Assembly (NCBI GenBank): GCA_049718765.1
Contig: JBNARI010000001.1
Location: 109,697 to 173,696, forward strand
Length of the DNA: 64,000 nucleotides
Source of the DNA: Bacillota bacterium
Lineage (GTDB): Bacteria; Bacillota; Sulfobacillia; DUMF01
Direction of reading: 5' to 3'
The translations under genes were made by a program, and so were the position numbers. Under the pieces are notes generated by a model. That model was not told the origin of the DNA. It saw only the letters and a program-made list of their open reading frames with translations, and made no database searches. How positions within the stretch are numbered: position 1 is the first letter of the stretch; every line of letters begins with the position of its first letter. This document shows positions 2,664 through 8,639 of this stretch, one piece after another.

Positions 2664-4127
2664 ATGTACCAAGAAAAGTTCGTCGGGCAAGCGCTTACGT
2701 TCGACGACGTGTTGCTCGTGCCGGACTACTCTGAGGTGCTTCCGTCCCAGGTGGATGTGAGCACGTGGTTCACGCGGAACATCCGGCTTAACATACCCAT
2801 CGTTAGCGCTGGAATGGACACTGTCACCGAGTCCCGGCTGGCGATTGCCATTGCCAGGGAGGGGGGGATCGGGGTCATCCATAAGAACATGAGCCCCGAA
2901 AGGCAGGCGGCTGAAGTGGACAAGGTGAAACGCTCGGAACACGGCGTGATCACCGACCCCATCTTCCTGAGACCTGACAACACGGTGAAGGAAGCCCTGG
3001 AACTCATGGCACGGTACCACATATCAGGGGTGCCGGTAGTGGAAAACGGAGGCAAACTAGTAGGCATCATAACTAACAGGGACATTAGGTTCGAGGAAGA
3101 CCACACCAAGCAAGTCCAGTACGTGATGACCAAGGAAAACCTCATCACCGCGCCAGTCGGGACCACCCTCGAAGAAGCCAAGAAGATACTCGCACGTTAC
3201 AAGATCGAGAAGTTACCCCTTGTGGACGAGCATTTCAGGTTAAAGGGTTTGATCACCTTAAAGGACATAGAAAAGGCCAGGAAGTATCCTAACTCTGCCA
3301 AAGACAAGCGCGGGCGACTTTTGGCGGCTGCTGCCATTGGCGTGGACAAGGGCTCCCTGCGCAGGGCAGAGCTGCTTGTGGCAGCAGGGGTGGACGCGCT
3401 GGTACTTGACACCGCCCACGGCCACTCCAAAAACGTTATTGAAATGGCACGGGAGGTCAAGAAGCGTTTCCCACAGGTAGACCTTGTGGCGGGCAACGTA
3501 GCTACCGCGGACGGAGCTAAAGCTTTAGCTGACGTGGGGGTGGATGCCGTCAAGGTGGGAGTGGGCCCGGGCTCCATATGCACCACCCGGGTAATAGCTG
3601 GTGTGGGCGTTCCCCAGATAACCGCGGTGATGATGGCTGCAGAGGCTGCTCGGGAGTATGGCATTCCCGTGATAGCTGACGGTGGCATACGCTATTCTGG
3701 GGATATCACCAAGGCGTTAGCGGCTGGGGCGTCGACCGTCATGATTGGCAGTTTGTTCGCTGGCACAGAAGAGAGCCCGGGTGAAACCGAGATTTACCAG
3801 GGCCGAAGCTTCAAGGTGTACAGGGGTATGGGTTCGGTTGGCGCCATGAAAGAGGGTTCCGCCGACAGGTACTTCCAAGAGGAAAGCAGCAAGCTGGTGC
3901 CAGAAGGGATCGAAGGCCGGGTGCCGTACAGGGGCCCCCTTTCTGAGACAGTGTTCCAGCTTGTGGGCGGCCTTCGTGCGGGCATGGGCTACTTGGGTGC
4001 AAGGAACATTCCCGAACTCCAAAGAAAGGCCAAGTTCATGGTTATCACTTCCGCTGGCCTTCAGGAAAGCCACCCTCATAGCGTGTACATCACCAAGGAA
4101 GCGCCCAACTACACTGTGCGGACCTGA
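2664..4127 (+). CDS. guaB: inosine-5'-monophosphate dehydrogenase
   Basis: Starts [34 protein letters not shown]. Tandem CBS-domain region, catalytic [11 protein letters not shown] loop and the [11 protein letters not shown] motif. The ATG at 2664 is preceded by GGGGG; the longer track ORF from 2601 is an upstream GTG extension. Confidence 0.95.
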
Positions 4128-4909
4128 GCGCCCGCAGCTACCAATGCTGCACCGTACGCTCCGGCGAACTGCGCCAGCTCAGGCACGTGTACCTTTAACC
4201 CCAGGCGGGCGGAAATCGCCTGGGGTACGCCTTTTATTGAGGACACCCCGCCGGTCATTACGACGTCAGGCCTGACCGAGACTCTAGTTGCCAGCCCTTG
4301 GACCCGTTCAGCTACTGCCTGGAACAGCCCCCGCACTATGTTCAACAGGGGTGTGCCTGCAGCAATGAGGGATATCACTTCCGACTCGGCGAACACCGTG
4401 CAAGTACTGCTGATGGGAGCAGCAGGCCCTTGAAATGACACTTGGGCCAGTTGGTCCAGACCCATGCCAAGCGCTGTGGCCATAACCTGGAGGAACCTGC
4501 CTGTACCTGCCGCGCATTTGTCGTTCATCACGAAGTCCTGAACCTGGCCGCCCTGGTCAACGCTTATCACCTTGATGTCCTGACCACCCACGTCTATCAC
4601 CGTTTGCACAGAGGGGTGCAGCCACTTGGCTGCAAGCGCGTGGCACGTGATTTCGGTTACAACCCGGTCAACTCCTGGCAACCTGACCCTGCCGTATCCG
4701 GTGCCCCCAAGGCGCCATACGTCGGAGCGCTGTAGCCCTGCCTGGGACAGTGCCTGTTCCAGGGCTGTCTGAGCCGCAGCCACAGGATCTGCGCCTGTAG
4801 GAACCACGGCCAGCCCCAATACCTTCGGAGTACAGGCATCTGGGAGAGCAACCACCACGGCCTTTGTGGCAACTGAACCTGCGTCAATGCCTGCGACAAC
4901 CTTTGACAC
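4109..4909 (-). CDS. BadF/BadG/BcrA/BcrD-type ATPase, HgdC-like activator (CoA-substrate-specific enzyme activase) of a 2-hydroxyacyl-CoA dehydratase-like system
   Basis: 266 aa. N-terminal [19 protein letters not shown] (acetate/sugar-kinase fold), [12 protein letters not shown] and the C-terminal MTGGVS motif typical of HgdC/archerase activators. Last gene of the cca–hgdB-like–hgdA-like operon; overlaps the convergent guaB 3' end by 19 nt. Confidence 0.8.
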
Positions 4910-7273: not shown

Positions 7274-8639
7274 TTTGGTCCCTCCACCAGTCCCTGAGCA
7301 GCTCTAGCAACTTGCCTCTCTCGTTCTTGGCGGGGTCTTCCAGCACTTGCTCGAGGAGATATCCAAGTGCCCTGCCCACTGTGGGGCCTGGCTTGATCTG
7401 AAGTTCCGCCATGACATCGTGCCCTGATATTGCCAGATCGCACACGCTCAGGGGCTGCTTTTCTTCAATCACCTGGCGTATCCTCTGCTGCAGTTGGACG
7501 ATGGAGTCAAGGCCCCTTTCGTTTCCTGAAGCCAACATGTCAGCGCGCTTCAGCTCGAGCAAGTCCAGGGTTCCGTCTGGGCCTAGCTTGCGCAGGAGTC
7601 GCCTCAACGCTGCATCCCCCAGATCCGACACGGGCCTCATGTGCTCACGGACCAGCATGCAGGTGCGCTCCACCGTGGCATTGTCCAGCTTAAGCCTGCT
7701 CAGGATCTGGCGCGCTATTTGCTCTCCCGCTCTCTCATGACCGTAGAAACGCAACTGACCAGAGTCCACGCACACGCACGCGGGTTTGCCTATGTCATGG
7801 AGCAACGCGGCGTAGCGCAGGGGGAGCGTGGGCGGCACGAGCTCTACTGCTTCCAGGGAGTGGTCCACCACTGGCTTGTTGTGCAGCCTAACCCCACTAT
7901 CCATTGAGGCGAGCTGCTCAAGCTCTGGTATGACCACTTTCATGAGGCCGTTGTCAAGCATGAACTGCAGCCCTTTGGAAGCGTACTTGCCCAGGAGCAA
8001 CTTGTTGAGTTCGTCCCTAATCCGTTCCACGGAAACCAGGGCGAGCTTTTGGGCATTGGCTTGCACTGCCCGCCGGGTGTCGCGCTGTACGTCCCAACCG
8101 TACTCGGCGCTGAACCGGGCTGCCCTGAGCATTCTAAGGGCGTCCTCGGCAAACCTTTGGTTTGGGTCTCCAACGGTGCATATCACGCCCTGACGAAGGT
8201 GGTTAATGCCATCAAAGGGATCGAGCACGGCTCCCGAGGGCCAGTGCACCGCAATTGCGTTGACCGTGAAATCACGCCTTGCCAAGTCCCCCTCGATGTC
8301 AGGCAGGAAAGTCACCAGCGTTGGGTGGCGTCCATCGTGGTAGTCCTGTTCCCCCCTGAAGGTGGTCACCTGCACCACCTTGCCGTCCTTCACCACGCCC
8401 ACGGTACCAAACTTCTCCCCTGCCAGCACCAATCTGTCGGGCGGGAACAGTGCCTTGACTTGATCTGGGAGGGCAGATGTGGCCAGGTCCCAGTCTGAAG
8501 GCACGAGTCCCAACAGGAGGTCCCTGGGTGCCCCTCCAACCACAAACACCTGGTGGCCCTGCTGCAGCAGCTTGTGGGCCACCTCACCCACGTAGTCGGG
8601 TGCAAGCGTGACGATGTCCAGCTGGTTTGAAAGCTGCAT
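7254..8639 (-). CDS. cca: CCA-adding tRNA nucleotidyltransferase / poly(A)-polymerase-family protein with HD domain
   Basis: Head domain VVGGAPRDLLLG…DWDLATSALP (GGxxRD, DxD), an RRDFTVNAIA region and the HD-domain motif LLHDIGK. ATG at 8639 has GGGAG 5 nt upstream; the track ORF extends to a GTG at 8651. First gene of the minus-strand operon that continues into the Hgd-like genes. Confidence 0.85.
   Translation of the reverse strand: MQLSNQLDIVTLAPDYVGEVAHKLLQQGHQVFVVGGAPRDLLLGLVPSDWDLATSALPDQVKALFPPDRLVLAGEKFGTVGVVKDGKVVQVTTFRGEQDYHDGRHPTLVTFLPDIEGDLARRDFTVNAIAVHWPSGAVLDPFDGINHLRQGVICTVGDPNQRFAEDALRMLRAARFSAEYGWDVQRDTRRAVQANAQKLALVSVERIRDELNKLLLGKYASKGLQFMLDNGLMKVVIPELEQLASMDSGVRLHNKPVVDHSLEAVELVPPTLPLRYAALLHDIGKPACVCVDSGQLRFYGHERAGEQIARQILSRLKLDNATVERTCMLVREHMRPVSDLGDAALRRLLRKLGPDGTLDLLELKRADMLASGNERGLDSIVQLQQRIRQVIEEKQPLSVCDLAISGHDVMAELQIKPGPTVGRALGYLLEQVLEDPAKNERGKLLELLRDWWRDQSVREKR

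Follow-up and report, generated by a model that had tools for sequence, protein, structure and literature searches.

A stretch of 64,000 nt from a Bacillota bacterium (assembly GCA_049718765.1, contig JBNARI010000001.1, positions 109,697–173,696), referred to here as the window, was analysed for a group of genes that places a CCA tRNA nucleotidyltransferase gene (cca) beside a system resembling 2-hydroxyacyl-CoA dehydratase (HAD). The list of open reading frames (ORFs) of the window showed a minus-strand run of four tightly packed genes, cca, a beta-like subunit, an alpha-like subunit and an activase, with successive overlaps of 20 nt (cca/beta), 19 nt (beta/alpha) and 26 nt (alpha/activase). 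The four genes and the intergenic region upstream of them are as follows.

7254–8639, minus strand: cca, 461 aa from ATG 8639 (longest ORF 7254–8651, from GTG 8651)
6191–7273, minus strand: beta-like PF06050 subunit, 360 aa, predicted carrier of an [8Fe-9S] double cubane
4884–6209, minus strand: alpha-like PF06050 subunit, putatively catalytic, 441 aa from TTG 6209
4109–4909, minus strand: activase of HgdC/DCCP-R type (archerase ATPase), 266 aa
8640–8692, no strand assigned: divergent intergenic region between cca and an ABC permease gene, likely a shared promoter and 5′ leader

A preliminary description of this locus, made from the DNA letters without database searches, had named these four genes, their tight packing and the absence of an adjoining CoA-transferase, acyl-CoA ligase, ferredoxin or 2-hydroxyacid dehydrogenase. 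The Pfam and NCBIfam domains agreed with the gene identities, the neighbouring genes confirmed that none of these partners adjoins the run, and the term 'orphan' used for the Hgd-like system is correct. The run is flanked by a divergent ABC permease gene and by a convergent gene for inosine monophosphate dehydrogenase (IMPDH), whose 3′ end overlaps that of the activase by 19 nt (4109–4127), so that an intrinsic terminator has no room there. Furthermore, no promoter-like or terminator-like site was found on the minus strand within the four-gene cluster. A block of ~45 nt before the cca ATG is near-identical in the window and in two related loci (L001 and L002), even though the cca proteins are no more than 57–74% identical; this conserved block within 8640–8692 probably acts as a promoter and leader shared by the two genes. 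The same intergenic region matched no Rfam family and gave no scored consensus sigma-70 site, and the whole window yielded no Rfam match and no tRNA. The four genes almost certainly constitute one operon, and we infer that they are co-transcribed.

The start codons of cca and alpha were also evaluated. A Shine-Dalgarno sequence, GGAAGTGGGAG, precedes ATG 8639, which is the likely start of cca. Two NCBI proteins, P0001 (alpha) and P0121 (cca), were 100% identical to the window proteins, and P0001 is given as 426 aa from a GTG start at 6164, 15 codons inside TTG 6209. The 15 alpha residues before this GTG, MLAARLIQRGLRS, match MLAANLIQKALTS in P0003, a 59%-identical relative, and because of this conservation the TTG start and the 19-nt overlap that it creates are credible.

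The cca product contained the Pfam domains PolyA_pol (5e-32), PolyA_pol_RNAbd, HD and tRNA_NucTran2_2. Its motifs (GGAPRD at 35, DWD at 49, RRDF at 121, EDALRMLRAARF at 165 and HDIGK at 281) include the class II head motifs A (GGxxRD/DxD), B (RRD) and D (EDxxRxxRxxRF), which are accompanied by an RNA-binding body. Motifs A, B and D, HDIG and the domain architecture are shared with the bacterial class II CCA-adding enzymes that carry an HD domain (B. subtilis and actinobacterial type), and this architecture is common to thousands of homologues at 40–48% identity. P0121 is named CCA tRNA nucleotidyltransferase by the NCBI annotation pipeline (PGAP). Judged by its class II motifs, the gene probably encodes the cell's ordinary enzyme for CCA addition and repair, with nothing unusual about it. 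The best NCBIfam scores fell slightly below two equivalog cutoffs (TIGR02692, 300 bits against 439; PRK13299, 266 bits against 290), and the exact specificity is therefore left as a prediction; CCA-, CC- and A-adding activity is indistinguishable here from sequence.

Both remaining subunits belong to PF06050 (beta, 5e-47; alpha, 6e-58). Their cysteines were compared with those of (R)-2-hydroxyisocaproyl-CoA dehydratase (HadBC; PDB 3O3M) and of BzdNO, the catalytic core of the Bzd-type class I benzoyl-CoA reductase (BCR; PDB 8S02; PMC11971306), as the preliminary description had proposed, and also with those of the double-cubane cluster protein (DCCP) of Carboxydothermus hydrogenoformans (PDB 6ENO, 7YYL; PMC7317905). 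The comparison revealed six cysteines in beta in the pattern of BzdN and DCCP and three in alpha in the pattern of HadB and BzdO. Their codons, with alpha residues in the 426-aa numbering, are located as follows.

7235–7237, minus strand: beta C13
7124–7126, minus strand: beta C50
7064–7066, minus strand: beta C70
6587–6589, minus strand: beta C229
6470–6472, minus strand: beta C268
6371–6373, minus strand: beta C301
5856–5858, minus strand: alpha C103
5772–5774, minus strand: alpha C131
5064–5066, minus strand: alpha C367

Each of the six beta cysteines is conserved in 96–100% of 76 family members, and the full set is present in 73 of the 76. They align one-to-one with Cys36/73/100/263/293/327 of BzdN, which are the ligands of its [8Fe-9S] cluster (PMC11971306), and with the ligands of DCCP, whose cysteine motif is given in a review (PMC7317905). 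In the alignment, HadC has no equivalents of C13 and C229, with Pro and Ala at these positions, and the beta cluster of HADs is a [4Fe-5S] remnant (PMC11971306). In addition, beta R30 and R233 match two BzdN residues, Arg53 and Arg267, that are in contact with the distal sub-cluster (PMC11971306). The AlphaFold2 model of beta (predicted local distance difference test score [pLDDT] 84) gave BzdN, DCCP and HadC as the best PDB matches, with template modelling (TM) scores of 0.77, 0.77 and 0.74, and the NCBIfam scores were 90 bits for double_cubane (NF040772; cutoff 350), 50 for HadC (cutoff 700) and 49 for BzdN (cutoff 454). On this signature, beta is predicted to carry an [8Fe-9S] double cubane. 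Two Anaerolineae-type betas (L089 and L090) have lost four of the six cysteines and, by the same signature, are degenerate double-cubane sites. The label 'HgdB-like' in the preliminary description falls short for beta, whose cysteine pattern is the six-Cys signature of BzdN and DCCP instead of that of a dehydratase beta subunit.

The alpha-like subunit scored 98 bits against HadB (cutoff 750) and 67 bits against BzdO (cutoff 449). C103, C131 and C367 are invariant in all 86 family members and align with the cluster ligands of HadB and of BzdO (Cys95/128/380), and E61, E74 and R107 are also invariant. The position of BzdO His131 falls on G133 or G134 of the window alpha, with an alignment uncertainty of one residue, and the two positions are occupied in the family by Gly (78/86) and by Ala (75/86). 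The AlphaFold2 model (pLDDT 89) best matched HadB (TM 0.84/0.89), followed by BzdO (0.82/0.80). Alpha is thus predicted, from its aligned cysteines, to hold a three-Cys [4Fe-4S] cluster of the HadB/BzdO type. For alpha and beta alike, the NCBIfam equivalog scores were far under the cutoffs, which places both subunits outside any characterised clade.

The activase scored 243 bits against TIGR00241 (cutoff 125) and 8e-59 against PF01869. Its C132 and C170 are conserved in 100% of 51 homologues, and their spacing matches that of the two cysteines with which each HgdC monomer holds the bridging [4Fe-4S] cluster. At the other loci examined, at most one activase copy lies beside the cassette.

The combined features of the beta–alpha–activase cassette are close to those of BzdNO, although the sequence identity is ~20–23%. 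Like BzdNO, the cassette has two PF06050 paralogues forming a putative heterodimer, with six cysteines in the small subunit (for [8Fe-9S]) and three in the large subunit (for a [4Fe-4S] cluster with an open iron), and would be driven by ATP through an ATPase of the BcrAD/BadFG family. The cassette also resembles DCCP and its reductase DCCP-R in the six ligand cysteines, in the fold and in the single-gene ATP-dependent reductase partner. In contrast, both subunits of the DCCP homodimer hold a double cubane, whereas in the window the motif is confined to the beta subunit of a predicted heterodimer whose alpha is of HadB/BzdO type; moreover, the seventh conserved, non-ligand cysteine of DCCP is absent from the window beta, which scores 90 against the NF040772 cutoff of 350. 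Membership in the HAD, BCR or DCCP clade was considered and rejected, both for the equivalog scores and for single features that define these clades.

On its cysteine signatures, a heterodimeric, ATP-dependent reductase of double-cubane type is a better description of the cassette than a dehydratase. The predicted outcome is net reduction and not dehydration, because the predicted cluster set equals that of BzdNO, a two-electron reductase, and not that of HAD. In the proposed mechanism, a low-potential donor, reduced ferredoxin or flavodoxin, would pass an electron to the bridging [4Fe-4S] cluster of the homodimeric activase, and ATP hydrolysis by the activase would drive this electron into the double cubane of beta. 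The [8Fe-9S] cluster would store and relay two or more electrons, which would then pass to the three-Cys [4Fe-4S] cluster of alpha, where the open iron may bind substrate or water and the substrate would be reduced via radical intermediates. A small carbonyl- or thioester-activated compound is the predicted substrate. By analogy, a CoA thioester is plausible because the alpha fold is HadB/BzdO-like and an acyl-CoA ligase gene lies upstream of the cassette in a Dehalococcoidia clade.

The wider family was examined for gene order and recurrent neighbours at 85 non-redundant loci. The order beta–alpha was found in 85/85 loci, the activase lies directly downstream of alpha in 45 of them, and beta–alpha fusions of 700–806 aa exist (P0258, P0312, P0318, P0325, P0337 and P0351). 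Clustered at 50% identity, the family has 174 clusters with E ≤ 1e-30, or 760 with E ≤ 1e-10, and it ranges over Bacillota (Moorella, Neomoorella, Desulfallas, Halothermothrix and Syntrophomonadaceae), Chloroflexota, Desulfobacterota and Armatimonadota. The neighbours of the cassette are highly variable among loci, and the beta–alpha–activase cassette is an independent, self-contained unit.

Only one neighbour recurs across phyla, a radical S-adenosylmethionine (SAM)/SPASM protein of ~460 aa with an N-terminal extension of ~110 aa, which adjoins the cassette in 17 of the 85 loci, in at least five lineages and in two arrangements. An L-lactate dehydrogenase gene lies directly after alpha in nine loci of one clade, the nearest to the window lineage, where no activase adjoins and MscS and MazG genes are often upstream. 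An acyl-CoA ligase gene lies upstream of the cassette in eight loci of the Dehalococcoidia clade. These neighbours are located as follows.

L005, 5179–6567: radical SAM/SPASM gene; also in L038 and L052
L025, L026, L035, L039, L040, L042 and L047: radical SAM/SPASM gene ~1.3–2.7 kb upstream of alpha
L063, L070, L076, L084 and L086: radical SAM/SPASM gene directly after the activase
L007, 7380–8405: L-lactate dehydrogenase gene (TIGR01771, 372 bits, above cutoff); equivalents in L013, L015, L016, L017, L018, L021 and L059

The radical SAM/SPASM protein matched no NCBIfam equivalog, the best being generic scores of NirJ2, AhbD and mycofactocin type far under the cutoff; it is likely a functional partner of the cassette. 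A search of the window for radical SAM/SPASM, L-lactate dehydrogenase and acyl-CoA ligase partners gave only weak radical-SAM-core matches, which fall on MoaA (22226–23428) and on a PDZ/DUF512 radical SAM gene (1194–2540).

The distribution of the cca linkage was assessed in a scan of species-representative genomes, which yielded 259 stretches with an alpha relative; the best 80 loci were retrieved, and recurrence of cca was then checked over 94 loci with tblastn and a cca-family hidden Markov model. An alpha with more than 45% identity was found in only two other genomes (P0002, 71%; P0003, 59%). Both keep the order cca–beta–alpha–activase, and both share with the window the regional synteny of the ABC transporter, IMPDH, the radical SAM-PDZ gene and M42 peptidases. 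Given this shared synteny of the whole region, the three cca-positive metagenome-assembled genomes count as one inherited event. In the scanned loci, a cca-family gene was found only in the window lineage (L012, which shares its contig with L002) and in a single Chloroflexi contig, L057; none was found within up to 10 kb in 78 of the 80 other cassette-carrying species. The nearest outgroup cassettes (Halothermothrix orenii, L007, L009, L010, L095 and L097) have no cca, and three of the nearest cca homologues from other lineages (P0127, P0181 and P0190; 44–46% identity) have unrelated neighbours and no cassette. A literature search found no paper combining a CCA-adding enzyme with 2-hydroxyglutaryl-CoA dehydratase, and a paper on the mlp gene cluster had no bearing on the locus. 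The preliminary description had read the coupling to cca as a possible sign of shared regulation or of a non-CoA substrate and had suggested that its conservation across genomes be examined; the linkage proved to be essentially restricted to three syntenic relatives. The adjacency is probably a lineage-specific gene-order accident that carries no functional information.

We consider it probable that the window contains an operon in which an ordinary cca is joined by an orphan reductase, heterodimeric and ATP-dependent, from the class I BCR/HAD/DCCP superfamily, and that the adjacency of the two is inherited gene order. Several observations weigh against this reading. The six aligned cysteines of beta predict a cluster from sequence and not from a spectrum. 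The single activase gene is the arrangement of HAD and DCCP and not that of BCR, and alpha is slightly nearer to the dehydratase HadB than to BzdO, in sequence as well as in fold. The cca–beta overlap has been kept in three genomes despite divergence of alpha to 59%, which also fits selection for co-expression. Finally, L057, on an unrelated contig, carries a 416-aa tRNA-nucleotidyltransferase-like gene (1158–2408) on the same strand, 355 nt upstream of beta, and the chance of such an adjacency over 79 loci was estimated by us at ~3–5%.

The L057 adjacency was compared with that of its sister L071, also from Chloroflexota, in which alpha is 95.5% identical and the DNA is 94% identical from 70 nt upstream of beta. 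The upstream gene of L071 is a different one, which lies on the opposite strand (3904–4557) and encodes an RsuA-like pseudouridine synthase, and the synteny breaks exactly upstream of beta. L057 was therefore rejected as a conserved cca linkage; because its sister has another upstream gene, the adjacency either is a singleton that arose recently or stems from an assembly join. The L057 contig contains N gaps. The upstream genes of L057 and L071 are both RNA-related, probably by coincidence.

Among the alternatives, a genuine 2-hydroxyacyl-CoA dehydratase of the HgdAB/HadBC/LcdAB type, serving amino-acid or lactate fermentation with the CoA-transferase and 2-hydroxyacid dehydrogenase genes elsewhere in the genome, is the most probable, yet we regard it as unlikely. 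The cassette shares a compact gene order and a single homodimer-type activase with HadBC/HadI and with HgdAB/HgdC, HadB is what alpha matches best in the PDB and in NCBIfam (91 bits; 98 bits; TM 0.84–0.89), and alpha retains the three ligand cysteines as well as the PE motif with its invariant Glu. The acyl-CoA ligase of the eight Dehalococcoidia-clade loci and the lactate dehydrogenase placed after alpha in the nine loci of the nearest outgroup clade point in the same direction. However, these dehydrogenases are L-specific, whereas known 2-hydroxyacyl-CoA dehydratases act on (R)-2-hydroxyacyl-CoA. The window beta has the additional conserved C13 and C229 that complete the double-cubane set, whereas HadC, like other HAD betas, holds only the remnant [4Fe-5S] site. 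The HadB and HadC equivalog scores are 7–14 times under the cutoff, the cassette has no D-2-hydroxyacid dehydrogenase partner, and a CoA-transferase was found neither in the window nor among the recurrent neighbours of the 85 loci.

A functional link to cca, in which the reductase would act on a nucleotide, a modified nucleoside or tRNA (for example in reductive repair or de-modification) and be co-expressed with CCA repair, is highly unlikely. The retained translational coupling of cca and beta in three genomes and the second same-strand adjacency in L057 would fit such a role, as would the activity of distant one-domain relatives, TudS on 4-thio-UMP and RudS on tRNA s4U (PMC11971306, PMC10611767, PMC11417400). 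However, TudS and RudS are not ATP-dependent and have only one domain in common with the cassette family. The three positive genomes reduce to one event, nearly all other cassette-carrying species have no cca-family gene nearby, the synteny of L057 and L071 is broken exactly where the link would lie, and the nearest cca homologues have unrelated neighbours. We give still less credence to the proposal that the linkage is real in the window lineage and, independently, in the one Chloroflexi case, in which event a tRNA or nucleotide reductase would extend the precedent of TudS and RudS to the archerase-dependent branch.

A class I benzoyl-CoA-type dearomatising reductase (Bzd/Mbd-like) acting on an aromatic CoA ester is equally hard to credit: the predicted cluster complement is that of BzdNO and BzdN is the best fold match of beta, but there is one homodimer-type ATPase gene where BCRs use a heterodimer of the BzdP and BzdQ type, the equivalog scores are low (BzdO, 67 against 449 bits; BzdN, 49 against 454), the proton-relay His131 of BzdO is replaced by Gly/Ala in the cassette family, and the window contains no aromatic-degradation genes, that is, none for a dienoyl-CoA hydratase, dehydrogenase, ring hydrolase or benzoate-CoA ligase.

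Several further features of the window were noted. The longest ORF of the flanking IMPDH gene (2601–4127, 508 aa, from GTG 2601) is ~21 codons longer than its relatives of 487 aa, and because of this difference the true start is probably an ATG 63 nt downstream of that GTG. The ABC transporter at 8693–11757, which is conserved and divergent to cca in all three relatives, consists of an unusually long, NitT/TauT-like permease of 586 aa with two BPD_transp_1 stretches, of an ATPase and of a separate AAA_assoc_C protein of 164 aa. It is followed at 12019–17143 by three consecutive GAF/PAS signalling proteins, the last of which, 698 aa long, has a PocR sensory domain together with two GAF domains and an HD_5 domain of HD-GYP type. 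A molybdenum-cofactor biosynthesis cluster at 19202–23428 includes two MoeA genes and MoaA, with one MoeA fused to PBP_like (PF12727). Purine-related genes occur across the window (guaB, 2601–4127; a xanthine/uracil-family permease, 17149–18417; guaA, 24919–26457), and adenine deaminase, purA, MazG, NUDIX or dCMP deaminase genes adjoin the cassette in some other loci (L039, L007 and L057).

The reading of the cassette as a heterodimeric ATP-dependent reductase bears on the physiological role of enzymes with double-cubane [8Fe-9S] clusters. For DCCP no natural substrate is known, and BzdNO was described as the first double-cubane enzyme whose role in catabolism is defined (PMC11971306). The window cassette is part of a fairly widespread family of anaerobes, as yet uncharacterised, which the databases label simply '2-hydroxyacyl-CoA dehydratase'. 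Within a known superfamily, this family combines a six-Cys beta of BzdN/DCCP type, a HadB/BzdO-type alpha and a single HgdC-type activase; the linkage to cca itself appears not to matter. Cultivable hosts (Halothermothrix orenii and species of Moorella and Neomoorella), together with the recurrent radical SAM/SPASM partner, offer handles on the substrate. If the reading is true, '2-hydroxyacyl-CoA dehydratase' annotations in this family would be misleading, and the family would represent a further class of ATP-dependent low-potential reductases.

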